Source: Acutalibacteraceae bacterium
GTDB taxonomy: Bacteria > Bacillota > Clostridia > Oscillospirales > Acutalibacteraceae
Direction: 5' to 3'
Assembly: GCA_036309465.1 (NCBI GenBank)
Contig: JAXJTR010000092.1
Span: 3,944-67,943 of the forward strand
DNA: 64,000 nt
The position numbers were made by a program, and so were the translations under genes. The notes under the pieces were generated by a model. It did no database searches. It saw only the letters and a list, made by a program, of their open reading frames with translations, and had not been told where the DNA came from. This document shows positions 3,120 to 59,514 of the stretch, one piece after another. Each line of letters begins with the position of its first letter. The first letter of the stretch is position 1.

Positions 3120-3287
3120 ATGGCATTTATTTGGCGATAGAGCAATGAAAACTTTCAACTGATAAGAGAAGGTGTCACAAGTGTTTACGCTTGTGACACC
3201 TGTAAAACGGAATAATAGAGTTGTAAACAGAAATAGATGTCATATAAATGATGTTTATTTGTGTTTATAAAGAAAGAAGGGAAAAAT

Positions 3288-3509
3288 ATGAATGAAAGTA
3301 TGAATGTAACAGGAGAAAGATTGAAAGAGTTAAGACAAGCATTAGGATTGAGTAAGACTCAAGTTGCGGAACAACTAGGTTTAATGATGTCCTCGTATTA
3401 TACGTATGAAAAGCAAGGCAGAGCATTACCATATTCAATAGCAATGCAAATAGCTAGATACTATGATGTTGATGTGGCTTATATACTTGGCGAAACTGAT
3501 GAAAAATAA
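3288..3509 (+). CDS. XRE-family helix-turn-helix transcriptional regulator
   Basis: Sequence GERLKELRQALGLSKTQVAEQLGLMMSSYYTYEKQGR is a typical Cro/C1 HTH. ATG 3288 follows AAGAAGGGA; the listed start at 3261 lacks an RBS. Confidence 0.75.
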   Translation: MNESMNVTGERLKELRQALGLSKTQVAEQLGLMMSSYYTYEKQGRALPYSIAMQIARYYDVDVAYILGETDEK

Positions 3510-8830: not shown

Positions 8831-11342
8831 AGAGTTAACCAAAGCCGAAAAAAAATATCAAAAGCAAATCCAAAAAAATGAAAAGGCTATGAGGGATTTA
8901 GCAAAAGCGAGAAGAACTACCGAGCGAATATTGCCATTCAAAAGGATATATCGAAATGTTATAGAGTGTAAAAATCATATGTTTTTAGATATATTGAAAT
9001 TTAGAACTAAGGACTTGACCAACATTTCTGAAATGGACATAACTGGTGATAATGCTCAGATACAGAAGTTCCTAAAAATGTATTCAGATGATTGTAAAAT
9101 TGTAGGGATTAATTTTCCTACAAATACTAAAGGACAACAAGCTTATTACCATCACAAAATTAATATTGAAAAAAACCCTTTATACAAAGAAGTTTTGCAA
9201 GAAAAACTTGAGCAGTTAGAACAGGTTGAAAAAGAAAGTACCGATAGGGAATATTTTCTTTTTGTTTATGGAAAAACATTTGAAGATGTAACTAATAACA
9301 AAAACATTGCATTAAGCACTCTCGGTAATCCAACACAACTCATAAGTGAAATACCACTGTATGAAAAATTACAGTGTATTTTCAAAATGACAAATAAATG
9401 CACATCAATGTTTAATGATGAGCAGTTACCACAAAGAATAATAAGAGATGATAGTGAGGAACAAATTCGTAAAAAAGGTTATGATGCGTATTTATTAGAA
9501 ATTTTACAGCCTAGAGGTGGTATTAGTTTTAATTTTTCTGATTGTGTACAAACAGGTGATGGTTTTGAAACCTGTCTGTATATTTATGATTATCCAACAT
9601 CTGTAGATAGACATTGGCTCACATATATAATGAATATAACAGGAGCAATAACAACTATTGACATAAAGACATTAAATAAAGATGAGGTAAGGAAAAACCT
9701 TAACCGTTCTGTAGGCGAACAGCGAAGCAGATATAATATGGCAAAGAACATAGAAGAAACTATGGATGCTGAGAAACGTTGGCAAGAACTTGTTGACTTG
9801 TACAACGAACTAGCTACAATGGGTGAAGTTGTTAAAAGTATAGTTGCAAGAGTATATTTGTCGGCAAAAACAAGAGTAGATTTAGAAAATATAAAAAAGG
9901 ATATTAAAAATTATCTTGATGGTAATGAGTACAAGTGTTGTGTTAATCTTAACGAGCAAGAATATGAATGGAGAAGTATGTTTTTACCTAAATCATCACA
10001 GGATGATGGATTTATACTTAATAAACGTGAAGGACAGTCTATAACTTCACAGGTTATAGCGGTTGGCAATCCGTTTCATTTTTCTTCTTTAAATGATAAA
10101 TATGGTTCGTTGTTGGGAAAAACATCAAGTACCGATATTGCTGGTAACGTTATTTTTGATTGTTTTAATGTCAGCAACGTAAGAACTTCTTATAACGCTG
10201 TTGTTACTGGTCTTATGGGTATGGGTAAATCTACTATCCTTAAAAAAACCATAAGAGATAGAGTTGTAAGAGGTGATTATGTAAGAGTAGCTGATGTGGT
10301 TGGTGATTTTATTGAGGAAGCTAAGATGATGGGAGGAACTGTTATCAAATTAGATGGTAGCAGTGGTATTATTAATTTGCTTCAAATAATGGCTACACGA
10401 GAAAACGAAGAACAGTCTTATGCTATGCACATTAATAAGATAAAAAATATGTATAATTTCTTATCACCAAACTGTTCAGATACAGAAAAAATGTGTTTTG
10501 AAAGTTTAGTTACAGACCTTTATGTAAAAAAAGGGTTAATACCGCAAAATAAGACGGTTACTGGTATTCAAGTTACAGGACTTCCTAATGATGTGTACCC
10601 AACACTAAGCGACTTGTTGAGTTTTGCAAAAGAAAAGTTTGAAAAAGAAAATCAACAAGATACAAAAATACTTTATAGAAATATAGTATTTGTATTAGAA
10701 AAAATGTGTACTACATATTCGGCTATTTTTGATGGACATACTTCCGTTGCTGATGTTCTTAATGAACAATTTGTTGTTTATGATTTATCAAGTCTTGCTA
10801 ACCTTGATACAGGTGTTTTTGATGCTCAACTGTTCAATGTATTAACATTGTGCTGGGCTAATGCTGTCAAAATAGGCACAAATGAAAAAAGCAAATATGA
10901 AGATGGTGAGATAAATCTGGCTGAAGTAAAACATTTCTTATTGTTGTTAGACGAAAGCCATAAGACCATTAATGCAAATAAGCCTTATGCTGTGGAACAG
11001 GTATCAGTTTATGCTAGAGAAGGAAGAAAGTTTTTCGCTGGAATATGGCTTGCATCACAGTCTATGAATGACTATTATCCAGACAGTACAGTTGATGCAA
11101 AAAGTGTAGAGCTAATAAAGACACTATTCGCACTTGCTCAATATAAGATTATATTTAAACAAGATGTATCAATGCTAAATAAGTTGACACAAACCCTTGG
11201 TGGTAATTTAACTGCAACCGAAATTGAAAGCATACCGACTCTTGAACGAGGAGAATGTGTTATGTCTACAGGAGAAGAAACATTAAGATATAAAGTTATT
11301 TGTACCCCAGATGAGCTTGCTATGTTCAAGGGTGGCGTATAA
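8817..11342 (+). CDS. virB4: VirB4/TrsE-family conjugation ATPase
   Basis: Walker A is GLMGMGKST and Walker B is FLLLLDESH. Size is ~840 aa. ATG 8817 lies 11 nt after AGGAG; the listed GTG 8805 is less likely. Confidence 0.85.
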   Translation: MRENKELTKAEKKYQKQIQKNEKAMRDLAKARRTTERILPFKRIYRNVIECKNHMFLDILKFRTKDLTNISEMDITGDNAQIQKFLKMYSDDCKIVGINFPTNTKGQQAYYHHKINIEKNPLYKEVLQEKLEQLEQVEKESTDREYFLFVYGKTFEDVTNNKNIALSTLGNPTQLISEIPLYEKLQCIFKMTNKCTSMFNDEQLPQRIIRDDSEEQIRKKGYDAYLLEILQPRGGISFNFSDCVQTGDGFETCLYIYDYPTSVDRHWLTYIMNITGAITTIDIKTLNKDEVRKNLNRSVGEQRSRYNMAKNIEETMDAEKRWQELVDLYNELATMGEVVKSIVARVYLSAKTRVDLENIKKDIKNYLDGNEYKCCVNLNEQEYEWRSMFLPKSSQDDGFILNKREGQSITSQVIAVGNPFHFSSLNDKYGSLLGKTSSTDIAGNVIFDCFNVSNVRTSYNAVVTGLMGMGKSTILKKTIRDRVVRGDYVRVADVVGDFIEEAKMMGGTVIKLDGSSGIINLLQIMATRENEEQSYAMHINKIKNMYNFLSPNCSDTEKMCFESLVTDLYVKKGLIPQNKTVTGIQVTGLPNDVYPTLSDLLSFAKEKFEKENQQDTKILYRNIVFVLEKMCTTYSAIFDGHTSVADVLNEQFVVYDLSSLANLDTGVFDAQLFNVLTLCWANAVKIGTNEKSKYEDGEINLAEVKHFLLLLDESHKTINANKPYAVEQVSVYAREGRKFFAGIWLASQSMNDYYPDSTVDAKSVELIKTLFALAQYKIIFKQDVSMLNKLTQTLGGNLTATEIESIPTLERGECVMSTGEETLRYKVICTPDELAMFKGGV

Positions 11343-12631: not shown

Positions 12632-13182
12632 TGAATGAACTTATAAAGCAATATATAAAAAAACACAGATTAACTATCGCTATTTATATATTCTTAATTG
12701 TGATATGCTTTTCGCTCTGTTTTAAGTATCAAGAACAACTGAATATTAATAGACAACTATCTGATGAACTATCGGCAAAAAATCAAAAAAATTCAAGTGA
12801 TGTTGTAAACGATAATGATTATAATGCGAAACTTGAAATTGAGGTGCTAATAAGAAATTATGCTGATGTATATTATGAGTGTGATAATAACACTAAGTTA
12901 AAGTATAAAGAAAATCAATATAAGCAACTTGTAACAGAAAACTGGTTTGAACTTAGTAGAAGTGAGTTTGATTTAATGTTTTTTATTCCAGAAAAAACAG
13001 TTATTTCTATTGATAATATTGATGTTTATTGTGGAAAAATTTATTCCACAAAGGCTACAGCAGTAAGTGTTATAGAGGTCAAAACAGAAAATCGTTCTGG
13101 TTATACTAAAACTAAGATTTATGAAAAATATCAGTTGGTTAAAGAAAAAGGCGAATGGCTTATTGATAAAGTAGAAACATAA
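12631..13182 (+). CDS. N-terminally anchored hypothetical T4SS-associated protein
   Basis: One TM (LTIAIYIFLIVICFSLCF) followed by a soluble domain. Translationally coupled to the upstream gene. Confidence 0.55.
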   Translation: MNELIKQYIKKHRLTIAIYIFLIVICFSLCFKYQEQLNINRQLSDELSAKNQKNSSDVVNDNDYNAKLEIEVLIRNYADVYYECDNNTKLKYKENQYKQLVTENWFELSRSEFDLMFFIPEKTVISIDNIDVYCGKIYSTKATAVSVIEVKTENRSGYTKTKIYEKYQLVKEKGEWLIDKVET

Positions 13183-13265
13183 GTGTGAAAAAATCGACAA
13201 TTATATTATAAAAAAATATTGTATAATATTAAAAAGAGCTTGTCCTAAGAGAGGATTAATGTGAT

Positions 13266-13430
13266 ATGATGCAAAAAAACAATGATACTATTGTAAAAAA
13301 AGTAATACACTATCGACGATTACGAAAGTTAGGGATATGTCTAATGATATTATCACCAATTATATTTGTCTTGGTGTTTGTGTTGTTAGGTATGTATTAC
13401 TGTTTTATTACAGGTGCTAATTTTATTTAA
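13266..13430 (+). CDS. Small membrane protein (54 aa), absent from the ORF track
   Basis: ATG follows AGAGAGGA. Translation is MMQKNNDTIVKKVIHYRRLRKLGICLMILSPIIFVLVFVLLGMYYCFITGANFI, read by hand. Confidence 0.4.
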   Translation: MMQKNNDTIVKKVIHYRRLRKLGICLMILSPIIFVLVFVLLGMYYCFITGANFI

Positions 13431-13448: not shown

Positions 13449-14465
13449 TTGCTAAATTTACTAAAAGGAAATAAATCAAGTGAAGTAGACGTAAATAATA
13501 AAGATGATGTTGTTATATCGCAAAGCACGAGCTTTTACAGCAGTGGAGATAAAATAACCACAATTTATGTAATTATTGCTCTTGCAATAATAACTGGGTA
13601 CATAATTTTTTTTACTTCACCATATTGGTTGGGTGGAGTTGATAAAGAGAATGTAGCAATTACACAAATAGGTGAACCAGTTGAAGATATGTTAGGAAAA
13701 AAGTTTACAGTTGAAAACTGGGAATATTGTGAAGCCAGCCAAGAGATGATATTAGAAGTGTCTATAGAAAATTTAGTTTTTGATGGCATTAACGAATATC
13801 AATATTATGGTGATGCTAAAATAACATCTGGAGAAGTAAAAGAATGTACATCTGAAATTGTATATAAAGAAAATGGCTTTAATGTTATAAAAATAAGTGA
13901 TATACCAAAGGAAATGCAAGTAATGACAGTAACTGTTGCTTATGAAAGTAATGTTGATGTAGAGGGGAATGAATTAGAGACCCCTGCATTATATGGTGCT
14001 TATCTTTGTACTAGTAAAGAGGCTGTGACGAAAAAGGACAAAATAAAGATATTAGATAAGAAAGGATATAAAATATCTTCATTAGAAAGAATAATTAAAA
14101 ATAATGAAATGGAGATAAATGAACTAAACGCTGAAATATCTAAACAGGAAAAGTCACAGAAAGAAATACTTAACACGATTGAAATATATTGTACATCCAA
14201 GGAAAACACGATACAAGATGAACAATCTAAAATTGATAAGAAGATACAAGAATGTGAAACACATTATGAAAGTATAAGTTCACTTATATTGGATTGTAAA
14301 GCGAGAATAAGTGAACTTGAAGAAAGCATAGAACAAGCTAAGTCAAATATAGACATATTGCAGGGTAAAGAAAAAGCAACCGAAAAAGTAAATCGTATTG
14401 AAGATGAAAATATTTCAGATGAAGATACAGAAAAATATACAGAACAATATGAAAGTAAATCTTGA
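13449..14465 (+). CDS. Membrane-anchored coiled-coil protein, unknown function
   Basis: TM is VIIALAIITGYIIFF. C-terminal third is E/K/I-rich and heptad-like. TTG start after GAAGGGAGAG. Confidence 0.55.
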   Translation: MLNLLKGNKSSEVDVNNKDDVVISQSTSFYSSGDKITTIYVIIALAIITGYIIFFTSPYWLGGVDKENVAITQIGEPVEDMLGKKFTVENWEYCEASQEMILEVSIENLVFDGINEYQYYGDAKITSGEVKECTSEIVYKENGFNVIKISDIPKEMQVMTVTVAYESNVDVEGNELETPALYGAYLCTSKEAVTKKDKIKILDKKGYKISSLERIIKNNEMEINELNAEISKQEKSQKEILNTIEIYCTSKENTIQDEQSKIDKKIQECETHYESISSLILDCKARISELEESIEQAKSNIDILQGKEKATEKVNRIEDENISDEDTEKYTEQYESKS

Positions 14466-14481
14466 TTATGGGGTGATTAAA

Positions 14482-15771
14482 ATGTTTAAGAAAATAATTA
14501 CAGGAATATTAGCGTTTAGTTTTCTATTGACAATAGGTTGTAAAAATGATGAAATAGAACAGGAGAATTTAGAATTAAATCCTACGGAGATAGCAACAAG
14601 TGGTGTTTTTGTCCCAAAGCGAGAAATAGAAGATGTAAAACAAATGCCAACAGATTATGATGGGGAAAGTGCCTACTATAATTACTTCGGATACTTATTT
14701 CCATTTACAAGATTATCACTAAGGACTGTTGAAATGAATGACGTAGGTTATGTGTATCAGTGTTATAATAACGCTTATTGCTACGCTATTTCCTCACCAG
14801 CAACATTTGGTGACAATCAAACGCTCAAAACATTAGATGGTATAGTAGATAAATGTTATAATGCGACATTTGATTGTATAACTAGTGGAGAATTTGTAAA
14901 TTATCCGATTTCTAATGACAAAAATGACACGAAAATAACTTTTGAGAGTGAAGAAAAGTTAACAATAGGAGAAATAGAATGTGTAAAGGCTAGAGGTACG
15001 GTTGTTGATAATTACAATCAAACCTATCTGTTTATTACAGGATACTACTTTCTAACAGAAGTTTACGAAGAAAGTTATCCAATGTTTGTTGTATGTGCAG
15101 AAAGATATACGGATGCAAACGCTAGTAAGGGAACATCCACAGTAGAATGGTTTACAGAACAAATGTTGCAGAATACAAAGAAACATTCGTATAACAAGGC
15201 TAAGATATATGAAAAAGACGAATTTAATACTACATCAGAATTAAAAGATATAATAACAAATGACAGATTGCTAACAGTTAAATACCCAAGTTCATTTGCA
15301 AATATAAAAAATAGAATAACAAGTTTTGGGAGATTATTTATGACGGATGGTAGTATACTTATTTCATCTAGTCCAACATCTAGTGTAGTTGATGAAAATA
15401 ACATCTCAAATAAACAACTTGAAGAAGAAATGAACAGAACTAATTTACCAGCAAATGATATGTTAGCGTTTCCTTCAAAAATAGTAGATATTGATACAGC
15501 AGAAAAAGTAAGAGTAGGAAATAAAGAGTGCATTAAGATAACAGGGGTATTGTCGGTACACGATGGTGGAGATACAAGTCTTATAATAGGAAGTTTTGAT
15601 TTTATAGGTTATTATCACGAAAAACAAAATGAAGAATACAAAGCTTTTACTTATGGTGTGTCATATAGTGAAGAAGGACACGAGCCACCTGTTATAAAAA
15701 AACAACAAATAGATATGCGATATGTGGATGATTGTATAAAAAAGTTGATTGAACAAACTGAGGCTAATTGA
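14482..15771 (+). CDS. Lipoprotein, unknown function
   Basis: MFKKIITGILAFSFLLTIGCKND carries a lipobox (LTIGC). ATG 14482 follows GGGGTGA; the listed upstream extension overlaps the preceding gene. Confidence 0.65.
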   Translation: MFKKIITGILAFSFLLTIGCKNDEIEQENLELNPTEIATSGVFVPKREIEDVKQMPTDYDGESAYYNYFGYLFPFTRLSLRTVEMNDVGYVYQCYNNAYCYAISSPATFGDNQTLKTLDGIVDKCYNATFDCITSGEFVNYPISNDKNDTKITFESEEKLTIGEIECVKARGTVVDNYNQTYLFITGYYFLTEVYEESYPMFVVCAERYTDANASKGTSTVEWFTEQMLQNTKKHSYNKAKIYEKDEFNTTSELKDIITNDRLLTVKYPSSFANIKNRITSFGRLFMTDGSILISSSPTSSVVDENNISNKQLEEEMNRTNLPANDMLAFPSKIVDIDTAEKVRVGNKECIKITGVLSVHDGGDTSLIIGSFDFIGYYHEKQNEEYKAFTYGVSYSEEGHEPPVIKKQQIDMRYVDDCIKKLIEQTEAN

Positions 15772-20650: not shown

Positions 20651-21040
20651 ATGAGAAACTTTGGAGAGTTAGGAGAAACTTGCCTTATTACAGAAGATGA
20701 AAGCAAAATGGCGGATGCACCTATATGCAATAAGGATACACAACAAGAACAAGTTCATACAAATAAAAACAATGAACTGGGATTGTTGTTATCAAATATT
20801 TGTAATGGAACAAAAATATATGCTATAAAGCTTAAATCTTGTGAGAACGAGAAAGCAATATTGTTTGAAAATTGTTTTTTGTATAGAAACATTTTACGTA
20901 AACAAATAAAATCTTGTCGAACAAGTAAGGAATTAACTAATACAACAAACCTTTATTCTCTAGTCGAAGAAACTCTACAAGAATACAATCTTTATGATGA
21001 ATACGAAAAATACGAAAAGAAGCGAAAGCAAGGGGAATAA
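20651..21040 (+). CDS. Hypothetical protein
   Basis: RBS is GAGGAA. The 3' end lies inside a bidirectional terminator hairpin. Confidence 0.5.
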   Translation: MRNFGELGETCLITEDESKMADAPICNKDTQQEQVHTNKNNELGLLLSNICNGTKIYAIKLKSCENEKAILFENCFLYRNILRKQIKSCRTSKELTNTTNLYSLVEETLQEYNLYDEYEKYEKKRKQGE

Positions 21041-21069
21041 CCTTGCTTTCGCTTCTTTTCATAAATAAA
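21023..21069. terminator. Bidirectional terminator between convergent genes
   Basis: Perfect 20-bp arms GAAAAGAAGCGAAAGCAAGG / CCTTGCTTTCGCTTCTTTTC with a 7-nt loop. Confidence 0.7.
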
Positions 21070-24695: not shown

Positions 24696-24970
24696 TTGAT
24701 TTTGTTTATTGCCTGTGTTATAATATATTTGTTAATTATTGTGGTTTTATTTCATTAATAAGACTTTTACTTTGTTCTTAAAAGAAGGACATTTTATGTG
24801 TAAAATTTGTCACAGTGACAAAAACACATTAAAAAACTCTACTGTATAGGTAGAGAGCATCCAGTTTATTGTGTGCTAAGTGCTATTGTACTAATTTAAT
24901 AAATACTTATTGAAAACTACACCTATTTGTGTGAAGCCATTTGGTATCAACATAAATGGGTGTTTTTTTA
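24696..24970 (+). ncRNA. Structured RNA leader module, copy A (divergent): own promoter, multi-hairpin RNA, intrinsic terminator
   Basis: TTGATT (24696-24701), 17 nt, TGtTATAAT (24719-24724). Hairpins homologous to copies B-D. Terminator ACACCTATTTGTGT...ACATAAATGGGTGT + T7, with two G-U pairs on the plus strand. Confidence 0.65.
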
Positions 24971-31713: not shown

Positions 31714-31723
31714 TGATGATAAG

Positions 31724-31762
31724 CAAAGCCTCACCATTTTTAGTGAGGCTTTGTCTGTTTTT
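31724..31762 (+). terminator. Intrinsic terminator
   Basis: CAAAGCCTCAC / GTGAGGCTTTG stem followed by TCTGTTTTT. Confidence 0.7.
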
Positions 31763-31789
31763 GCCATACGGCAAAAAACTGTGAAAAAA
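31758..31789 (-). promoter_or_regulatory. Palindromic box TTTTTGCC-ATAC-GGCAAAAA with adjacent TGTGAAAAAA (copy 2 of 4)
   Basis: Same composite motif as at 17839, 55525 and 55622. Confidence 0.6.
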
Positions 31790-32596: not shown

Positions 32597-32633
32597 ACAC
32601 TTCTGGCATATTTTATGTCAGAAGTGTTTTTTT
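32597..32633 (+). terminator. Intrinsic terminator
   Basis: ACACTTCTG / CAGAAGTGT stem followed by T7. Confidence 0.7.
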
Positions 32634-32650
32634 GACTGTGTGAATAAGGG

Positions 32651-32985
32651 TTGAAAAAGTTTTAACTGTATGATATAATGAACCTATTAATCATTGTGGT
32701 TTTATTTATTGATAAAACTTTTGTTCTGTTCTCTGCTAAGAACAGTTTATGTGTAAAATTTATCATTTTGATAAAAACACATTTAGAAACTCTACTGTAC
32801 AAGTAGAGAGCATTAAACTTATGTTTAACGCTAAGTGCTATGCACTAATTTATAATCTTTGGAATAAACACATACTTTTGTAATTGCCATCAATACTGGC
32901 TTTTTCAAAGTATGTGTTTTTTTATATTTTTTAGAAAGGCAACGCTACCTAGGTCAGTAGCAAAACAACAACAAAAATTAATTTT
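32651..32985 (+). ncRNA. Structured RNA leader module, copy B, with conserved post-terminator tail
   Basis: TTGAAA (32651-32656), 17 nt, TGaTATAAT (32674-32679). Six hairpins precede the terminator AAACACATACTTT...AAAGTATGTGTTT + T7 (ends ~32923). Then the GCTAC-CTAGGTCA-GTAGC hairpin and a CAACAACAAAAATT tract. Confidence 0.7.
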
Positions 32986-33004
32986 AGAGAAAGAAGGCAA
33001 AATT

Positions 33005-37762: not shown

Positions 37763-38008
37763 ATGCGTACAACTAAAGATAACGCTTCTACAAACACTAA
37801 AAAATTAATTAATCTAAGTAATCCTGATAAAGAATGTTACAAACCAATGGATGGACTGAAAGGGCTGGGAACTTTCCTAGCCTTTTTGCTTGACTATTAT
37901 TTATATTATAATTATAATATAGATAAAGAGAGAAAACTTCTTTCTTTTCTCGGAGTGAAGCAATGCTACACTCAATTAATTTTTGTTGTTAGGAACAGTG
38001 TTGTTTAG
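37763..38008 (+). CDS. Small hypothetical protein
   Basis: RBS is AAAGGAGAA. The stop lies inside the terminator hairpin at 37992-38035. Confidence 0.45.
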   Translation: MRTTKDNASTNTKKLINLSNPDKECYKPMDGLKGLGTFLAFLLDYYLYYNYNIDKERKLLSFLGVKQCYTQLIFVVRNSVV

Positions 38009-38035
38009 ACAAAAGACAACACTGTTCCGTTTTTT
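37992..38035 (+). terminator. Intrinsic terminator
   Basis: GGAACAGTGTTGT / ACAACACTGTTCC stem followed by GTTTTTT. Confidence 0.7.
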
Positions 38036-38052
38036 ATAATCCTAATTTATAA

Positions 38053-38385
38053 TTGATTTTCTATTAATTCTATGATATAATGTCTTTGTTAATTATTGTG
38101 GTTTTGCTTTTATGTAAAACTTTTCTTTCTGTTCTGAATGAAGGACAGCACGTGTGTAAAATTTGTCACAGTGACAAAAACACATTTAGAAACTCTACTG
38201 TACAAGTAGAGAGCATTAAACTTATGTTTAACGCTAAGTGCTATGCACTAATTTATAATCTTTGTGATAAACACATACTTTTGTAATTGCCATTAATATT
38301 GGCTTTTTCAGAGTATGTGTTTTTTTATATATTTTTTAGAAAGGAAACGCTACCTAGGTCAGTAGCAAAATAACAACAAAAATTA
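38053..38385 (+). ncRNA. Structured RNA leader module, copy C, immediately upstream of ssb
   Basis: TTGATT (38053-38058), 17 nt, TGaTATAAT (38076-38081). Hairpins P1-P6. Terminator AACACATACTTT...AGAGTATGTGTT + T7 (ends ~38326). Then the GCTAC...GTAGC hairpin and an AACAACAAAAATT tract. Confidence 0.7.
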
Positions 38386-38417
38386 AAATTAAAATTAAAA
38401 TGAAAGAAGGCACAAAT

Positions 38418-38807
38418 ATGCTAAATCTAGGATTAATTATGGGAAGATTAACAACAACACCTGAGTTAAAAACAACAACAGGTGGTAAAACAGTAACTTC
38501 ATTCAACGTCGCAGTTGATAGAGGTAAAGACAAACCAACTGATTTTATTCCTTGTGTTGCTTGGGAAAATACAGCAGAATTTATTGCTAAATATTTTTCT
38601 AAAGGCAATCTGATTTGTTTACGAGGAACTCTGCAAAGCCGACAATACAAAGATAAAAATGGTAGCACTCACAATGTTTTAGAGTTAATAATCAGTGAAG
38701 TTAGCTTCACTGGCGAAAAAACTAATACTGCTCCTAATAATACATCACAAAATAATGATTATGATGACTGTCCTCTCCCTACGGATGATGACCTTCCATT
38801 TAATTAA
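38418..38807 (+). CDS. ssb: Single-stranded DNA-binding protein
   Basis: MLNLGLIMGRLTTTPELKTTTGGKTVTSFNVAVDR forms the OB fold. Acidic tail ends in DDDLPFN. Confidence 0.9.
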   Translation: MLNLGLIMGRLTTTPELKTTTGGKTVTSFNVAVDRGKDKPTDFIPCVAWENTAEFIAKYFSKGNLICLRGTLQSRQYKDKNGSTHNVLELIISEVSFTGEKTNTAPNNTSQNNDYDDCPLPTDDDLPFN

Positions 38808-43527: not shown

Positions 43528-43642
43528 TATATGTCACGCCTATTGAAATATTGATTATCTGTGCTAAATATGATATAATAATATTATAATATATATTCTT
43601 TTTGACTGGATGGAGTGAATAGGAAAGAGGTGTTATTTAGAA

Positions 43643-46010: not shown

Positions 46011-46070
46011 TAAATAGAAAAAGGATAGTCTATGATACCTCGAAATCGTAGACTATCCTTTTTCTATTTA
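46011..46070. repeat. Large perfect hairpin (22-bp arms, 16-nt loop); candidate oriT, att site or terminator
   Basis: TAAATAGAAAAAGGATAGTCTA (46011-46032) pairs with TAGACTATCCTTTTTCTATTTA (46049-46070). Loop is TGATACCTCGAAATCG. Confidence 0.75.
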
Positions 46071-46162: not shown

Positions 46163-46203
46163 TCACGATTTTTATTGATTTTTAGTTCCATATATGGTAC
46201 AAT
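46163..46203 (+). promoter_or_regulatory. Promoter TTGATT-17-TACAAT with CCATATATGG spacer palindrome and TTTCACG box (copy 2 of 3)
   Basis: -35 is 46175-46180, the palindrome 46188-46197 and the -10 46198-46203. Confidence 0.7.
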
Positions 46204-46231: not shown

Positions 46232-46483
46232 ATGTCCAATGATAAATATGTTACCATTGATAGTGACAAATTATTAAAACTTATAAGTCGTTATATAGAA
46301 ACGACAAATCAGAGTTATACCGTATCTACTGCGTATAAACAGGTTGGAATATCAAAAACTAGCTGGTATAGAAAACTTAATGGAAAATGTGAATTTTCAA
46401 TTAGTGAATTTTACAAAATATGTGACAGCTTCGGACTATTACAATCAGACATTGAAGATATATTGGTATTTAATCGAACTTAG
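46232..46483 (+). CDS. Small HTH DNA-binding protein, candidate repressor of the CCATATATGG promoters
   Basis: SYTVSTAYKQVGISKTSWYRKLNG is HTH-like. ATG 46232 follows AAAGGTGGTGA. First gene behind promoter copy 2. Confidence 0.55.
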   Translation: MSNDKYVTIDSDKLLKLISRYIETTNQSYTVSTAYKQVGISKTSWYRKLNGKCEFSISEFYKICDSFGLLQSDIEDILVFNRT

Positions 46484-49775: not shown

Positions 49776-50429
49776 ATGCAATTACTTCAACGTGATAAAA
49801 ACATAATTGAATTATTAAGAAATTTTTATTGTTTATCTTATGATGAACTAAAAGGGCTTGCCACAGATACACAAATTGGTGATTGCAATACATTTGAAAG
49901 AACTGTTAAGAAGCTTGAGCAAAACAACTATATTGTATATCACAAAAACTTAGGTTACTCACTATCAGGTGTTAATATAAAAGATACAACTATAAATAAG
50001 CAAATACCTGTATTTAGGTGTTATGCAAAAATTATTAATTTTCTTAAATACAACAACACAAAACCTAAACACATAGATACAACCCTAACTAGCTTTGAAC
50101 CATCATTATTTATGCTCTCAGAAGCTGGAAATCGTTTATGTTTTAGTTATCTTCCTTTAAATAAAACATACGGTTTAACATTAGATGCTGAAATTTATAA
50201 CAAGTTTGCTTTTCGCAGTTTTCTCCTTACTTGTTGCAAAGATGAAAAATTAATACTTCTCTTAGATGATATAAAGGAATTTCCAGAAGCATACAAACAA
50301 GCAGATAATTTAGGATTTAAGGATGCACTACATTCAGTGTTCATTAAACCCATTACCCCTGATGATTATGATAACCCATTTATAACCAAAAGATACAGAG
50401 TAAGAGGTGGTGAGCTGGTTGCAAACTAA
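49776..50429 (+). CDS. Winged-helix protein resembling the Replication-relaxation (Replic_Relax) family
   Basis: N-terminus is LLQRDKNIIELLRNFYCLSYDELKGLA. No RBS precedes the ATG, and a TACAAT lies about 13 nt upstream (possibly leaderless). Confidence 0.35.
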   Translation: MQLLQRDKNIIELLRNFYCLSYDELKGLATDTQIGDCNTFERTVKKLEQNNYIVYHKNLGYSLSGVNIKDTTINKQIPVFRCYAKIINFLKYNNTKPKHIDTTLTSFEPSLFMLSEAGNRLCFSYLPLNKTYGLTLDAEIYNKFAFRSFLLTCCKDEKLILLLDDIKEFPEAYKQADNLGFKDALHSVFIKPITPDDYDNPFITKRYRVRGGELVAN

Positions 50430-51222
50430 TTCCGTATTTGACTTGTATAATGATAACTCTTGTGACACCTTTTCAAAAAGTTCAAATACTTCTTTACTAT
50501 CAAACAACACACACATTAATATAGCTCCTTTATTAACTCTCTCGAAAGAAACTGAACAAATAATTCAAATACTATCAGAGCAACTAACTGATGATGGTGT
50601 TAATATGAATAATATTAACGAATTAGTAAATGGTATCAACAAAAAAGTAAGAGCTATTAACCTAGCTTTAAACCGTAGCCAGTATGAGTTCTATCACAAT
50701 TCATATCATAATAATAGTATTGATACATTGCCATTGTCTGTTGATTATAAAGAAATAAATAAATACTCATTAAACATTATCAATGAGTATGTTTACCAAT
50801 TATTTCTTCCTTCTATCCCCTACCGTTCTGCTTCTATGTTAGATGCTCCACAACTTGAACATAAACAATTAATAAAGGAAGTTATTAATCACCTTATAAA
50901 CATAAACAAAAACAGAATTAGACAATTTAGTAAAGCTGACATCCTAATACAGTATGTTTGTTATAACAAAAGCAACTACGCAGACCACGACCACCGATTT
51001 CCTCATTACCTAATAAATAATCTAGTGCCTTCTTTTATACCAGATGATAGTCCTGCTTACATCAACCTTCATCACTACTTAGGTATTCCTCAACTACTCA
51101 CAGCCAAAGGAATAAATTTAATTGATACTACTCCATCTGACTGCACGATACTTTATATCATTGATAATTCAGATAATTCAAACAAAAATTTAGCAGATTT
51201 CTTAAAATTAAACCTAATTTAA
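50407..51222 (+). CDS. Hypothetical protein
   Basis: Long ORF overlapping the upstream stop. Start is uncertain (GTG 50407/50410 or TTG 50419). Confidence 0.45.
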   Translation: MVSWLQTNSVFDLYNDNSCDTFSKSSNTSLLSNNTHINIAPLLTLSKETEQIIQILSEQLTDDGVNMNNINELVNGINKKVRAINLALNRSQYEFYHNSYHNNSIDTLPLSVDYKEINKYSLNIINEYVYQLFLPSIPYRSASMLDAPQLEHKQLIKEVINHLININKNRIRQFSKADILIQYVCYNKSNYADHDHRFPHYLINNLVPSFIPDDSPAYINLHHYLGIPQLLTAKGINLIDTTPSDCTILYIIDNSDNSNKNLADFLKLNLI

Positions 51223-51370: not shown

Positions 51371-51493
51371 TACATATTTGATTTTTCGCTTATTATTGGG
51401 ATTTATTATAATTTTTAACACTCAAAAAGGTGCAAACCTATGGGAAAAGCTATACACCAATCCACTAACTTTATTTATTGGGAGAATAAAACT

Positions 51494-52708
51494 ATGGAAA
51501 AACACCTAACAGCCAAAAAAAGTCAAACCACTGTAATTGACGAGAACCTACTAAATTTTAATTCTTTACCCCTTTCCAAATACATCATACTTCTTATAGG
51601 AATATCACAAGAACTCTTTTATTCCACAATTAAAGATACTCTTTCTCAATATTATCCATTAAGCACATTAAGCACTACACTTTATAGACTACGAACTAAT
51701 AAGGACATCATTGTCCATAATAGCCACGGAATTAAAAGTTATACTCTTACATCACAAGGAATGGAAAAATTAAAAACTATCTCACCTCTGTTATATGAAC
51801 AAAACAAAGATTATAAATTTCGTAATATTGAAAACAACCGAAAAAAGAAACAGGGACTTGCTGATTTAATAATCCATATTCATTCTTGCAACACTCTTAT
51901 TTCTTCTAATACAAAGCCTATGTTAAGTGAGCTAACTGAAAAGGACTTTGAGGCAAAAAATATATTTTACACAAAAAAAGAAATCTTAGATGAGTATTGC
52001 GGAAAAGAAATGGTACAAATCCAAAGCAGTATATTCAAAGGTCTATTTTTCGCTTTAGATACAATGTACATCACATACGTTATTAACGATACAACTAAAC
52101 TTTATAAATCAAATGAAGAAAAAATGTTTAGCACATTACAGAATATGTGCTATTACTATTGGGGCAAAAACACAAAAGTCAAAATATTAGTATATTATCA
52201 TAATAATTCATTTCAAAAATGGACTAATCAAAGCAAAGAAAATACAAACTCTAACTACATTAACAATTTAAGATTATTCTTAACTGACAAAATAAAACAC
52301 AGTTCAGATATAATCCAAGTATTTGATAATACTTCTCTTGAAGTATTCAAAAGGATAATTCGAGAACCTACTTTTACATCTACAATAACTTCAATCTTTC
52401 AAAATAAAACTCGCCCTGTAACCAGTGCAGATACTAACTGCATACTGTGCAATGCTGACAGAATTCTAAATAATAACCCTTTTTTCTTAAATCTTTCTAG
52501 TGCAACTCATACTATAACCAAAGCCGTTAAAGAAATAAAAGCAATAAACAAATTAGGATTAACTAATCTCAAAATGTATATAGGTACTTACCAGCATTTA
52601 GTCCCCTTAATGGAGCAAATATTAAAGAAACATAAACTTGATAACGCACAGATTTACACTGTAGATTTTAATACTAACATAGAACAATATGAGGAACTAT
52701 TAAGATAA
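51494..52708 (+). CDS. Large wHTH protein (MarR/Replic_Relax-like N-terminus) directly upstream of the coupling protein
   Basis: YPLSTLSTTLYRLRTNKDIIVHNSHGIKSYTLTSQG is wing-like. ATG 51494 follows GGGAGAA. Confidence 0.4.
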   Translation: MEKHLTAKKSQTTVIDENLLNFNSLPLSKYIILLIGISQELFYSTIKDTLSQYYPLSTLSTTLYRLRTNKDIIVHNSHGIKSYTLTSQGMEKLKTISPLLYEQNKDYKFRNIENNRKKKQGLADLIIHIHSCNTLISSNTKPMLSELTEKDFEAKNIFYTKKEILDEYCGKEMVQIQSSIFKGLFFALDTMYITYVINDTTKLYKSNEEKMFSTLQNMCYYYWGKNTKVKILVYYHNNSFQKWTNQSKENTNSNYINNLRLFLTDKIKHSSDIIQVFDNTSLEVFKRIIREPTFTSTITSIFQNKTRPVTSADTNCILCNADRILNNNPFFLNLSSATHTITKAVKEIKAINKLGLTNLKMYIGTYQHLVPLMEQILKKHKLDNAQIYTVDFNTNIEQYEELLR

Positions 52709-55517: not shown

Positions 55518-55557
55518 ATTCATCTTTTTCACATTTTTTTGCCGTATGGCAAAAAAA
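55518..55557 (+). promoter_or_regulatory. TTTTTCAC + TTTTTTTGCC-GTAT-GGCAAAAAAA box (copy 3 of 4)
   Basis: ATTCATCTTTTTCACATTTTTTTGCCGTATGGCAAAAAAA. A direct repeat of it lies ~97 nt downstream. Confidence 0.6.
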
Positions 55558-55613
55558 TAATAATCATTCTTATTTTTGGCATATTTTTCAACTTTAAACA
55601 CGCTCATAAAAAA

Positions 55614-55654
55614 TATTCATCTTTTTCACGCTTTTTTGCCTTATGGCAAAAAAA
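55614..55654 (+). promoter_or_regulatory. TTTTTCACG + TTTTTTGCC-TTAT-GGCAAAAAAA box (copy 4 of 4)
   Basis: ATTCATCTTTTTCACGCTTTTTTGCCTTATGGCAAAAAAA. Ends 8 nt before the -35 of leader copy D. Confidence 0.6.
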
Positions 55655-55661
55655 TTAACTA

Positions 55662-55997
55662 TTGCTAATATAAGTAGTTTATGTTATAATCTTGTTATTA
55701 GTTATTGTGGTTTTATTAAAATATAAAACTTATTATCTGTTCTCAACGAAGAACAGCACGTGTGTGAAGCTTATCATTTTTGATAAAAACACATTTGGAA
55801 ACTCTACTGTACAAGTAGAGAGCATTAAACTTATGTTTAACGCTAAGTGCTATGCACTAATTTATAACCTTTGGGATAAACACATACTTTTGTAATTGCC
55901 ATTAATATTGGCTTTTTCAGAGTATGTGTTTTTTTATATTTTAAAGAAAGGATAATAGCTACATTAGGTCAGTAGCAAAACAACAACAGAAATTAAT
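55662..55997 (+). ncRNA. Structured RNA leader module, copy D
   Basis: TTGCTA (55662-55667), 17 nt, TGtTATAAT (55685-55690). Same hairpins and terminator as copy C (T-run ends ~55935). Then the GCTAC-ATTAGGTCA-GTAGC hairpin and a CAACAACAGAAATT tract. Confidence 0.7.
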
Positions 55998-56026
55998 TTA
56001 GAGAAAGATTAAAGAGGTGATATAAT

Positions 56027-56137
56027 ATGTTCATTGAAATGGTCATTATCGGATTTATTATTTATACTCTAATTGCCCTACTAACATATATGATTGCAAT
56101 AAAAGCATCATTAATTATAGAGAAAAAATTCTCTTAA
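56027..56137 (+). CDS. Tiny hydrophobic peptide (36 aa) downstream of leader copy D
   Basis: Translation is MFIEMVIIGFIIYTLIALLTYMIAIKASLIIEKKFS. RBS is AAAGAGGTGA. Confidence 0.4.
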   Translation: MFIEMVIIGFIIYTLIALLTYMIAIKASLIIEKKFS

Positions 56138-56814: not shown

Positions 56815-57366
56815 TTGAATGATAAAATAAAAAGTGTTATTATGGAAGGGACACTTGTTCGACTTATAGCTATGGACGATAAACAAGCCCCACCATCTGG
56901 AACATACGGTATCATTAATCACATTGATGACATAGGAACAATACATACACAATGGCAAAACGGTTCATCTTTAGGGATTATATATGACTTAGATAATATA
57001 GAATACATTAAAACAGTTATATATAATCTTCCTTCAAACAAGTGTATTGAGGTTATAACACCTTTACGTTCCCAAACAACTCCAACAGATACTAAAATTC
57101 AAGAGGTAGCTATAAAACATATCAAATATGACAAAATATTATCTTTAGATGAAACATTAACACCATCTGAAATAATAAAAGCATTTATACAAATGCTTTA
57201 TACATCTGCTACAATAATAACGAACAAAGCACTTGTCTTTGCAGAAGCAGTAAAAAAATATCAATCTGCACAACACGATTGGGATATATGTTCTTTAAAT
57301 AACAAACATAATTTCAACTATGAAAGAACTTATAATGAAATCAAAAATATGATTAATCAAAACTAA
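56815..57366 (+). CDS. Protein with an N-terminal DUF4314-like domain
   Basis: LVRLIAMDDKQAPPSGTYGIINHIDDIGTIHTQWQNGSSLGIIYDLD matches the DUF4314 pattern as I remember it. Confidence 0.5.
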   Translation: MNDKIKSVIMEGTLVRLIAMDDKQAPPSGTYGIINHIDDIGTIHTQWQNGSSLGIIYDLDNIEYIKTVIYNLPSNKCIEVITPLRSQTTPTDTKIQEVAIKHIKYDKILSLDETLTPSEIIKAFIQMLYTSATIITNKALVFAEAVKKYQSAQHDWDICSLNNKHNFNYERTYNEIKNMINQN

Positions 57367-57906: not shown

Positions 57907-57997
57907 TTTGCTATTTTATAGCTATACCAAAAACATCATTTATCTTAAAAGGTAAATGATGTTTTTTCTATTGTTAATTAGGAAAGAATGGTGAATA

Positions 57998-58492
57998 ATG
58001 CCTGTTCAAAAAATCACTAGTGCTATAGATAAGATGAAAATAGCAGAAATTGATTGTACTCAATATGCTAAATTAATTAATCAACTATATAAGCCTATTA
58101 TTGAAAACAAAGACATTAGCCAACGTATGCTTAATGAAATAATATCAGTAGAACGCCAAAGAATTAGATTGAATGGCAATAAAACTATGTGTTACGAATA
58201 TCTAGCTATAGCTTATGAGCTAACTAATATATCTTACATTATGAGCGTTATTAGCTACTTCCGTAACAAGGAATTTATAATAGCAGACTTATTACTTGAT
58301 TATTTTAATTTTTTAATATCAGAGATTAAAAACAATAAAAAAACTAAATATTTAGTAGGCACATACTCTCATTTATTCAGTGAGGCTATAACCGAATTAA
58401 ACTTCTCTGCTAGAAAAAACATTTTACTAAGTAGCAGACTAAAAAATAATATTGCAACAACAAAAATTAATAAAAAGGAAGAAACATTATGA
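57998..58492 (+). CDS. Hypothetical protein
   Basis: RBS is GGAAAGAATGGTGA; 164 aa. Confidence 0.5.
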   Translation: MPVQKITSAIDKMKIAEIDCTQYAKLINQLYKPIIENKDISQRMLNEIISVERQRIRLNGNKTMCYEYLAIAYELTNISYIMSVISYFRNKEFIIADLLLDYFNFLISEIKNNKKTKYLVGTYSHLFSEAITELNFSARKNILLSSRLKNNIATTKINKKEETL

Positions 58493-58782
58493 ATGGTAAA
58501 AAGAAAACACCTTGTTATGTACTTAATCACCTTGTAAACGGTACATCTGTTTATAGTCAACCATATACTAACCTTGGAAGAGCAATTAAAGATATGAAAG
58601 ACCAGTACGACGAGCTGGTTAACGAATATAAAAATAAAATCGTCGAAAACAACATAGATACCCAGAAAAAACAGGCTTGGTTATCAATCAGTGATAACGA
58701 CTATAGTTGGTATATCAACAAAGTCAGTAAAAAAAGTTACTGGTCAAGAGTTAGTATAGACAGCAGATTTATCTTTTCGTAA
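58489..58782 (+). CDS. Hypothetical protein
   Basis: Start overlaps the upstream stop. RBS is AAGGAAGAA. Confidence 0.5.
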   Translation: MNGKKKTPCYVLNHLVNGTSVYSQPYTNLGRAIKDMKDQYDELVNEYKNKIVENNIDTQKKQAWLSISDNDYSWYINKVSKKSYWSRVSIDSRFIFS

Positions 58783-58797
58783 TCAAGGAGAAACAGT

Positions 58798-59514
58798 ATG
58801 AATGATATTTTTAAGAATAAAAGAGTTCCAGCAAATACAAATAAAACTAATCCAGCACCGACTGCACCAGTCCCTGTTGCATCTAACGCCACAGGAACTA
58901 AACAGAACAATGCTTCCACACAGTCAAAATCAAATAATGGATTTGAAGTACGTGGAGATGAAAACGAAATAATGTCAATTCATACCAATAAAAACTTTGT
59001 TAAAGTAAAAAGTGATACTTTAAGCATAAAGAGATTTCATCTTTCTTTCGTTGAACACGATAATAGCTATAAGCTATTAGACAACATTGAGATGTATTTA
59101 GATTTCAAATCAGCCTCATTATTGGTAAGTGAATTTAACCGAAATGTTTTTGACCAAAAAATAGTAGCCTCATTAAATGAAGCTAAAGCAAATAACAGTA
59201 ACTTCCCTAAACCTGTATTCAAAAGCAATATGGGTGGAGTAAACGAAGCAAAGGCTAATCGTTCTGATGGAAAAGCAATATCCAGATACTTCGACATTAG
59301 TGCTGGTAACAAATATCCATTTGTTATATGTGCCTACGAATTTAAGGCACATACTGACAATAAATCTGGCATCATTATTCCTGAAGGAAAACCTGAGAAA
59401 ACAATAAGAATACCTGTATCCTATGACGATTTTAATTATTTCGTAAAGGAATTAGAAAACTATATGATAGCTTACGCTACCGTCCGTACTCAATATATAA
59501 TTAATAAAAAGTAA
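58798..59514 (+). CDS. Hypothetical protein with a disordered N-terminus
   Basis: RBS is CAAGGAGAA; 238 aa. Confidence 0.55.
   Translation: MNDIFKNKRVPANTNKTNPAPTAPVPVASNATGTKQNNASTQSKSNNGFEVRGDENEIMSIHTNKNFVKVKSDTLSIKRFHLSFVEHDNSYKLLDNIEMYLDFKSASLLVSEFNRNVFDQKIVASLNEAKANNSNFPKPVFKSNMGGVNEAKANRSDGKAISRYFDISAGNKYPFVICAYEFKAHTDNKSGIIIPEGKPEKTIRIPVSYDDFNYFVKELENYMIAYATVRTQYIINKK

Follow-up and report, generated by a model that had tools for sequence, protein, structure and literature searches.

Four operons on a conjugative plasmid of an uncultured Clostridia bacterium of the gut share a structured RNA leader that ends in its own terminator

In phage lambda, one RNA site (nut) lies behind several early promoters, each then followed by a terminator, and one encoded factor (N) opens them all, while phage HK022 carries two copies of its put RNA downstream of two promoters. 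Among Gram-positive conjugative plasmids, pLS20 carries cATT, a long structured leader behind a strong promoter with an intrinsic terminator just upstream of the Shine-Dalgarno (SD) sequence of the first gene; it has been proposed as a post-initiation checkpoint, and its antiterminator overlaps the terminator and excludes it, arises when a long central stem is extended by pairing of an upstream stem-loop with the terminator's 5′ strand, has a similar free energy and forms by default (PMC13401043). The conAn system, made up of the ConAn1 protein and the conAn2 RNA, starts long operons of Firmicutes plasmids with a large, poorly conserved structured RNA, and long-stem terminators stand at the operon ends (PMC8191782). 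Stems of at least 14 bp resist conAn-type processive antitermination in pLS20, and very long operon-end stems are a feature that resists the antiterminated polymerase there (PMC10325885). Promoter-proximal, sense-specific structured RNAs upstream of terminators are also known as canT of Tn916 (PMC11658703), put of HK022 and EAR of B. subtilis, and canT is followed by an insulating terminator, T1. Here we analyse a 64,000-nt stretch of an Acutalibacteraceae contig (JAXJTR010000092.1, positions 3,944 to 67,943; hereafter the window), which is part of a Gram-positive conjugative plasmid of an uncultured gut Clostridia bacterium and in which a ~239-nt leader with its own promoter and terminator heads four operons, among them that of ssb, the gene for SSB, a protein that binds single-stranded DNA. 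The leader is an uncatalogued, fast-evolving structured RNA that lacks the testable hallmarks of conAn, cATT, Frpo and the Rfam families.

A first-pass annotation of the window had described a unit of roughly 240 nt in four plus-strand copies, here called A to D, and alignment of these regions bore this out, with modules at 24696, 32651, 38053 and 55662. A 27-nt core occurs four times on the plus strand of the window against 0 in 100 shuffles, and a covariance model (R1), built from the core of the leader that spans hairpins P1 to P6, finds exactly four copies in the 64 kb, at 150-192 bits. Copies B, C and D are near-identical, and copy A has ~75% identity to them. All four open with a near-consensus extended −10 promoter (TTG-N17-TGnTATAAT), as had also been described: the pattern TTG-N17-TGNTATAAT has six occurrences in the window, where 0.25 are expected, and of these four stand at module heads, one at the head of the integrase operon (43551) and one inside a gene. 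With +1 predicted at a purine 7 nt past the −10, the unit, counted through the last base of the U-run, is 239, 238, 239 and 239 nt long in A, B, C and D, a length kept even in the divergent copy A. The parts of the four modules are as follows.

24696..24724, plus strand: promoter of module A (TTGATT, 17-nt spacer ending TGt, TATAAT)
24731..24969, plus strand: leader A, 239 nt, with P1-P4 and P6 as in B-D and a divergent P5; its own terminator at 24919-24963 (plus strand), then U7
32651..32679, plus strand: promoter of module B (TTGAAA, 17-nt spacer ending TGa, TATAAT), directly 3′ of the preceding gene's terminator (~32598-32636)
32686..32923, plus strand: leader B, 238 nt, with a long-stem terminator at 32862-32923
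38053..38081, plus strand: promoter of module C (TTGATT, 17-nt spacer ending TGa, TATAAT), directly 3′ of the terminator of operon B, which has a 15-bp stem (37992-38028)
38088..38326, plus strand: leader C, 239 nt, with P1 at 38100-38121, P2 at 38129-38148, P3 at 38152-38185 (inner hairpin 38162-38178), P4 at 38193-38211, P5 at 38212-38235, P6 at 38237-38249 and the terminator at 38269-38322, its U7 running to 38326
55662..55690, plus strand: promoter of module D (TTGCTA, 17-nt spacer ending TGt, TATAAT), downstream of the gene for the type IV coupling protein (T4CP), which ends at 55460
55697..55935, plus strand: leader D, 239 nt, with its terminator at 55874-55935

Extended −10 promoters of this type also stand at 43551-43579 and 46175-46203, where they head the integrase operon and the operon that runs from a helix-turn-helix (HTH) gene through ParA and ParB to the T4CP; the leaders of both are short and contain no structured RNA, which shows that the structured leader does not go with the plasmid's promoters in general. 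Small open reading frames (ORFs) that overlap the leader (e.g., 38080-38286) are not conserved among the copies, and the unit is therefore non-coding; no leader peptide is conserved and no antisense promoter is kept across the copies. A MITE-like mobile cassette (miniature inverted-repeat transposable element) was considered and rejected, as no terminal inverted repeats with target-site duplications were found at the unit edges and copies A, B and D have no flanking inverted repeat. Copy C alone has one, of 16 nt, with one arm 77 nt outside the unit. The arms of this perfect repeat (37976-37991/38371-38386; TTAATTTTTGTTGTTA / TAACAACAAAAATTAA) enclose module C and the terminator that precedes it; in a transcript that reads through from operon B, the end of that operon could thereby pair with the CAA tract ahead of ssb.

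Single-sequence folding and alignment folding both recover P1 to P6 followed by the terminator. The earlier description of the same hairpins and terminator in every copy holds except in copy A, whose P5 differs from that of B-D and whose terminator has another sequence (ACACCTATTTG…AAATGGGTGT), yet is fully paired through compensatory changes. Copy C folds at −69.6 kcal/mol, with z = −5.8 against dinucleotide shuffles, and all four copies reach z = −6.3 to −7.0 against mononucleotide shuffles. Counted on the alignment fold, 95.9% of the pair cells are standard pairs, a share that drops to 36-50% once the 3′ partners are shifted by 1-3 columns; two-sided (compensatory) changes affect six pairs, compared to 0-2 in these shifted controls and an average of 2.1 in shuffles. 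The proposal that the fold is maintained finds support in these pairing counts. The hairpin loops vary freely among the copies and contain no conserved tertiary motif.

The copies also exchange segments. The inner hairpin of P3 is common to A and C versus B and D, and the P3 flank to A and B versus C and D. On a near-identical metagenome contig, the leader of the primase operon (L001, 6214-6486) is a mosaic of the promoter of window copy B and a P1-P3 like that of window copy D; set against 32651-32923 and 55662-55935 of the window, it is direct evidence of gene conversion between copies.

The pair cells hold 21 G·U against three A·C, which identifies the sense-strand RNA as the folding strand. 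Minimum free energies on the plus and minus strands are −67.7/−41.9 for copy A, −69.6/−55.3 for copy C and −76.9/−53.8 kcal/mol for the leader of a related plasmid (L020), the more diverged members folding much better on the sense strand, so that the sense strand is the constrained one, fitting an RNA. Conservation begins at about +1 and the promoter spacers vary among the copies, which argues for a transcript rather than an operator. This evidence bears on a reading of the unit as a DNA-level operator or promoter cassette for a plasmid repressor, in which the RNA fold would be incidental. Gram-positive regulons of this kind exist, with four establishment promoters under one repressor (PMC6294495), and both the Reg576 regulon of p576 and the CUP repeats of IncN plasmids resemble the window in that several establishment-type operons are co-regulated through a repeated upstream element. 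The hairpins of the unit are palindromes and possible operators, the window has genes for HTH proteins at 3261-3509 and 46232-46483, and iteron arrays lie upstream of promoters in related plasmids. In Reg576 and CUP, however, the repeated elements are DNA operators on which a repressor acts at initiation, whereas the conserved part here is the transcript with its terminator: the DNA upstream of the unit is as unconserved as the spacers, compensatory and G·U-type stem changes keep RNA pairing rather than a DNA motif, orthologous leaders retain architecture and not sequence, and the U-run terminator is retained in every case. We consider a DNA cassette improbable.

Strand and anatomy also largely refute a role for the unit in the single-stranded DNA (ssDNA) of the transferred strand, as a Frpo-type promoter or a single-strand origin (sso) or ssi priming site, which is the least probable of the readings weighed here. 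It is suggested by the repeated ~300-nt structured elements that precede ssb, neighbouring early genes and anti-defence genes as a hallmark of Gram-negative leading regions (Frpo/ssi; PMC11541004), and by the SSB and primase encoded in the window. Unlike in Frpo/ssi, where they pair inside a long imperfect hairpin of the transferred (template) strand, the −35 and −10 hexamers lie outside the structured part and are unpaired in ssDNA centroid folds of either strand, and the strand that folds is the sense strand, which is unable to template these operons. Also suggestive is TAGCGT, the CS-6 element of ssoA, which each copy carries twice, on the minus strand only; in an sso this hexamer would occupy a terminal loop, together with RS-B, on the folding strand, and here it falls within stems of the poorer-folding strand. 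No match to the module or to its 24-kb context was found by blastn in phage and plasmid collections, the latter of 72,556 records that are assumed to include F-like plasmids. Finally, an ssDNA element leaves unexplained the double-stranded promoter, the U7 terminator and the conserved path to the ribosome-binding site (RBS).

The terminator that closes each leader has a stem of 13 uninterrupted pairs plus extensions and is worth −20.5 to −23.0 kcal/mol across the four copies. There is no antiterminator: when the 3′ arm of the terminator is barred from pairing in the fold prediction, its 5′ arm gains only −2.8 to −5.8 kcal/mol from partners that differ in every copy. Leaders of related plasmids are alike in this respect (alternatives of −3 to −8 versus terminators of −21 to −31 kcal/mol). 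None of the leaders was found to contain a conserved aptamer or sensor core that an alternative helix links to the terminator, as in riboswitches, T-boxes or classical attenuators, and loops and junctions vary among copies and lineages. In the absence of a competing structure, termination is the default outcome and the leader has no built-in switch, so it is neither a riboswitch nor a zipper attenuator of the pLS20 type. The first-pass annotation had argued for conditional termination by a shared protein, RNA or ligand; a ligand riboswitch or classical attenuator is unlikely given that no alternative fold exists, and what is left of the proposal is a trans-acting factor or a leader that modifies the polymerase.

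These properties place the leader near, and apart from, the systems named above. It would act as do the controls after initiation in pLS20, Tn916 and HK022. Like cATT, it is a long structured leader that follows a strong promoter on a Gram-positive conjugative plasmid and has an intrinsic terminator just upstream of the SD sequence of the first gene. cATT has a competing structure and the window leader has none (−3 to −6 versus −20 to −23 kcal/mol for the terminator); moreover, cATT is single-copy and precedes conAn1, whereas the leader is present in four copies and no conAn1 was found. The start of long operons, poor conservation and long-stem terminators at operon ends recall conAn, but the RNA of the window lies directly 3′ of a promoter and not of a conAn1 gene, and each of its four copies has a terminator; no GC-rich (75%) 16-nt box of the conAn2 type, which conAn2 has along with the stem-loop SL1, was seen in the leaders, which have 27-32% GC. 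Covariance searches with Rfam 15 gave no match at the gathering threshold in the whole window, in agreement with the initial failure to place the sequence in a known RNA family, and permissive scans of copies C and A returned noise only (best E = 0.077 for RybB, at 20 bits versus a gathering threshold of 40).

No promoter was found between the leader terminator and the RBS at any of the four modules, and each module is preceded by the terminator of the previous unit or by a divergent gene. With no promoter behind the leader terminator, the four operons depend on read-through, and each is headed by one promoter-to-terminator unit with no separate promoter downstream, as had been proposed. One leader common to four operons also implies the co-regulation that the annotation suggested. 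The hairpin and CAACAACAAAAATT tract that it had noted behind the terminators are present in B-D; copy A has no such module because its RBS lies directly 3′ of the terminator.

32924..33001, plus strand: segment B, with an SD-like AGAAAGG without a start codon, a GCTAC..GTAGC hairpin (32943-32962), a CAA-rich tract and an RBS
38327..38417, plus strand: segment C, with AGAAAGG (38338-38344), a GCTAC..GTAGC hairpin (38349-38366), a CAA/A-rich tract and the RBS AAAGAAGG (38403-38410) before the ssb ATG at 38418
55936..56026, plus strand: segment D, with AGAAAGG (55945-55951), a hairpin (55958-55976), a CAA tract and an RBS

The STAB-SD of B. thuringiensis cry3A is an SD-like AGAAAGG or AGAGAGG without a start codon in a long 5′ untranslated region (UTR). 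The likeness to it is confined to the post-terminator segment, and a role there in processing or stabilisation is putative.

Behind leader A, a probable first start (TTG 25003, following the RBS GAAAGGAAGTG) opens an operon for an AAA+ protein, a VWA protein and a DUF4942 methyltransferase. Operon B begins at ATG 33002 with a 271-amino-acid protein of no assigned family, followed by an HD protein, a DUF3854/zinc-ribbon primase, a beta-clamp-like protein and MazF; the annotation of its first gene as Rad52-like could not be verified, as the protein has no Pfam, PHROGs or NCBIfam match. Operon C encodes SSB, a 340-amino-acid protein without an assigned family, a YqaJ exonuclease and RecD2. Operon D begins at ATG 56027 with a hydrophobic ORF of 36 amino acids and continues with small genes that include a DUF4314 gene (56815-57366). 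The 36-amino-acid peptide (56027-56137) is hydrophobic with a charged tail (MFIEMVIIGFIIYTLIALLTYMIAIKASLIIEKKFS), and as judged from this composition resembles type I toxins or small membrane proteins.

Relatives of the leader were located by eye and by an architecture scan. An exact-core scan (CTCTAC-N7-GTAGAGAGC…GCTAAGTGC) of viral, genome and metagenome collections gave 0 matches, and an R1 search of 59 related loci (~730 kb) gave no significant match; a few ENA/Logan metagenome assemblies contain near-identical copies of the element. Among genome-resolved sequences, those nearest to the coupling protein come from metagenome-assembled genomes of Acutalibacteraceae (41-50% identity), and in the nearest cultured-host plasmids the T4CP identity is only ~37%. 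SSB is a poor anchor, with next-best homologs at ~54% identity, of which the one checked (P0003) lies in a prophage. Plasmids with 41-50% coupling proteins carry a unit of like architecture downstream of the T4CP gene, directly after it in L010 and L020 and with a short gene cluster between in L021.

L010, 12222-12665: leader of a related plasmid
L020, 6950-7375: leader of a related plasmid
L021, 14821-15160: leader of a related plasmid

These leaders have a promoter of the form TTGAAG/TTGAAA-17-TGnTATAAT, a 5′ end GU(U/A)AUUUAUU…, five to seven hairpins and a long-stem terminator with a U-run; behind the terminator, an SD-like AGAAAG(G/A) that lacks a start codon precedes a small hairpin, which is followed by an A-rich tract and then an RBS. 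L010 and L020 differ by nine compensatory pairs. The genes behind them are homologous to window operon D (local tblastn): the DUF4314 gene (56815-57366) has 49% identity to the first gene after the L021 leader, and gene 58798-59514 has 31-45% identity to genes after the L010, L020 and L021 leaders. Upstream, the order ParA, ParB, a 271-amino-acid protein, a 422-amino-acid protein and T4CP is kept. The single leader of like architecture in these plasmids thus stands before homologous genes, where the window has copy D. By position, copy D is orthologous to it and therefore ancestral, and copies A-C, the ssb copy included, are lineage-specific spreads by which the unit was duplicated onto three operons. 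The link to establishment genes drawn by the first-pass annotation is consequently secondary, as the ancestral copy stands after the coupling-protein gene and before the DUF4314 operon and the ssb copy chosen as its exemplar is a duplicate.

In a joint alignment across lineages, only the 5′ end and the terminator arms are alignable. The arms are the best conserved part (ACACATACTTTTG/…AGTATGTGT versus ACACTTACTTTGA/…AGTAGGTGT), which suggests sequence-specific recognition. No short motif beyond GAAAGG is shared across lineages, and shared k-mers are no commoner than in shuffles. Candidates of the architecture scan in the L045 group were rejected as they contain a small coding gene, and one in L040 was rejected as unconvincing. 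Several promoters in related Acutalibacteraceae plasmids are preceded by arrays of ~45-bp iterons with the palindrome GGAACCGGTTCC (L021 2760-2930, 12760-12920 and 14610-14800; L016 4420-4570; L022 ~9690-9910). They adjoin an opposite-strand ribbon-helix-helix gene and are probably operator or centromere-like sites; no equivalent arrays were found in the window. L010 also contains long tandem 18-nt and 39-nt coding repeats (5920-6258, 12989-13278, 14309-15720) in the genes behind its leader and in a ParB-like gene, which suggests repeat-rich surface or DNA-binding proteins.

The position of these units before genes has to be weighed against a reading in which the terminated RNA is itself the product, a stand-alone or 5′-UTR-derived small RNA (sRNA) that acts in trans by base-pairing or as a protein sponge, with the operons fed by constitutive leak. 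The strong promoter and terminator, a highly structured and probably stable RNA that should be abundant, the high dose afforded by four gene copies and the absence of a switch structure all suit an sRNA, as does one perfect 16-nt complement in an ORF (38250-38265 versus 51804-51819). Nevertheless, all seven units (A-D, L010, L020 and L021) are followed within ~30-100 nt by a co-directional RBS and a promoter-less gene, and the post-terminator segment is kept in six of the seven, copy A having only an RBS, which is a layout typical of leaders. The lineages have no single-stranded seed in common, and the complement is not kept in copies A and D. An sRNA is thus unlikely, though it retains an appreciable share of the probability. 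A search for trans-RNA partners in the window gave two 16-nt complements only, neither kept across copies. In the one described here, AATTTATAATCTTTGT, from a junction of leader C that is single-stranded, is complementary to a site in ORF 51440-52708; copy B matches at 15 of 16 positions, D is mismatched and A has no counterpart, and the complement is probably due to chance.

The reading we prefer, to which we assign a probability of about one half, is that the four operons share one default-off attenuation gate that is opened by a trans-acting factor or by a leader that modifies RNA polymerase. At each operon head, the strong extended −10 promoter would drive a non-coding leader of ~239 nt, which would fold co-transcriptionally into six local hairpins and then a long-stem intrinsic terminator. 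Default termination would yield a stable structured RNA of ~239 nt, and the operon would be expressed only when the polymerase reads through the leader terminator. The read-through mRNA would carry the SD-like AGAAAGG with its hairpin, a likely 5′ stabiliser, then the unstructured CAA-rich tract and the RBS. We infer from these features that read-through is regulated. Its agent could be a plasmid- or host-encoded factor that binds the leader or terminator RNA; alternatively, the leader could render RNA polymerase terminator-resistant, as in canT, put, EAR and conAn2.

The latter option, taken further, gives a self-sufficient cis-acting antiterminator RNA of the canT/put/EAR type, a sub-case of the gate in which the nascent leader would bind the polymerase that transcribed it and render that enzyme resistant both to the terminator of the leader and to later ones, no plasmid factor would be needed and the terminator would filter out unmodified polymerases. 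The structured, orientation-specific, promoter-proximal RNA with a terminator next to it is arranged like canT and T1 of Tn916, and no protein partner was found in scans of the window. The body of operon D adds to this, as it contains a terminator of its own.

57929..57972, plus strand: internal terminator of operon D, with a 17-bp stem

The RBS of the next gene (57998) lies ≤30 nt beyond this terminator, too close for a promoter to fit in between, so that the distal genes (57998-59514) rely on read-through, and the internal terminator fits a need for antitermination. Operon-end terminators of the window have unusually long perfect stems of 15-20 bp (37992-38028, 46017-46064 and, on the minus strand, 21014-21060); stems of 15 bp at 37992, 20 bp at 46017 and 17 bp at 57929 are of the type that stops an antiterminated polymerase in pLS20. 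By the same pLS20 rule, the leader's own long stem should resist antitermination, and polymerases arriving from upstream would also transcribe the leader, so that little filtering would result. The leader, a string of six independent hairpins with variable loops and no conserved tertiary motif, has no sequence or Rfam similarity to canT, put or EAR (EAR has no Rfam match in it), and its terminator is immediately adjacent and long-stemmed; antitermination activity is thus only a candidate property. The evidence on an RNA that acts entirely in cis is mixed, and we regard it as unlikely, about on a par with the sRNA.

A gate opened from outside, the first option for the shared gate, resembles lambda N/nut in its logic, and differs from it in that no N-like protein or boxA/boxB-like motif was identified and the leader is far larger than nut. 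Several points weigh against the gate as a whole. Transcript, termination efficiency and regulation are here predicted from sequence alone. The long-stem leader terminators, measured against the pLS20 stem rule, argue against easy read-through of the conAn type. Operons A-C have few internal terminators, and a processive system is not obviously required there. The covariation comes from four to five distinct sequences that exchange segments by gene conversion, and such support is real but below R-scape grade. Among the ~70 ORFs scanned, no NusG paralog, ConAn1 or RNA-binding antiterminator domain was found, many of these ORFs being without any family. The scan for ConAn1 (PF17362) covered small and leader-adjacent ORFs at E ≤ 1 and the others at E ≤ 0.001-0.01; the family is divergent (13-33% identity), and a distant homolog could escape such a scan.

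The plasmid nature of the window is apparent from its genes. The plus strand encodes a T-Q-ester adhesin, a pilin-like protein of a type IV secretion system, a VirB4-like ATPase, a CHAP hydrolase, a topoisomerase, ParA/ParB and the VirD4-type coupling protein, and a RepA_N initiator is encoded on the minus strand. PHROGs and NCBIfam added nothing for the unannotated window proteins and assigned no relaxase. Two genes upstream of T4CP, 51440-52708 (422 amino acids) and 50407-51222, are kept in all relatives at 30-36% identity; neither has a significant family, the only match at E ≤ 0.001 being a far-sub-threshold one to Sau3AI for 50407-51222, and the position of the 422-amino-acid protein suggests that it could be a relaxase that has escaped recognition. 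A hairpin flanked by A/T, TTTTTTGCC(G/T)TATGGCAAAAAAA, occurs at ~55535-55560 and ~55630-55655, as part of a ~95-bp direct repeat that lies upstream of module D, and once more at 31757-31778, immediately behind the terminator at 31723; it may serve as a bidirectional terminator or as a protein site. The window contains neither tRNA nor tmRNA genes.

Post-initiation control by attenuators and RNA antiterminators is emerging as a general regulatory layer in Gram-positive conjugative elements. Earlier cases are single conjugation-operon leaders in cultured Bacilli and Enterococci; here a leader-plus-terminator module has been copied onto four operons, with ssb, primase and methylase genes among them, which makes plasmid-wide co-regulation at the elongation step testable, and the ancestral copy D and the derived copies A-C provide a natural experiment. 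If read-through is regulated, a module with long-stem terminators and no built-in antiterminator requires a mechanism other than that of the zipper attenuator, and possibly other than that of conAn. Resources of the Rfam type also gain with the leader a structured RNA family not catalogued so far. A bolder and rather doubtful extension is that it represents a new class of RNA gate, in which one recognition event on the shared ~239-nt leader and its sequence-conserved long-stem terminator, by a plasmid or host factor or through action of the RNA on RNA polymerase, would switch four operons (methylase/AAA-VWA, primase, ssb-recombination and DUF4314) from off to on as an RNA-level early regulon of a Gram-positive plasmid, with entry into a new host as a plausible trigger. 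If true, it would be a functional counterpart of the zygotic induction by Frpo, achieved through antitermination at terminators that work on pLS20 suggests are resistant.

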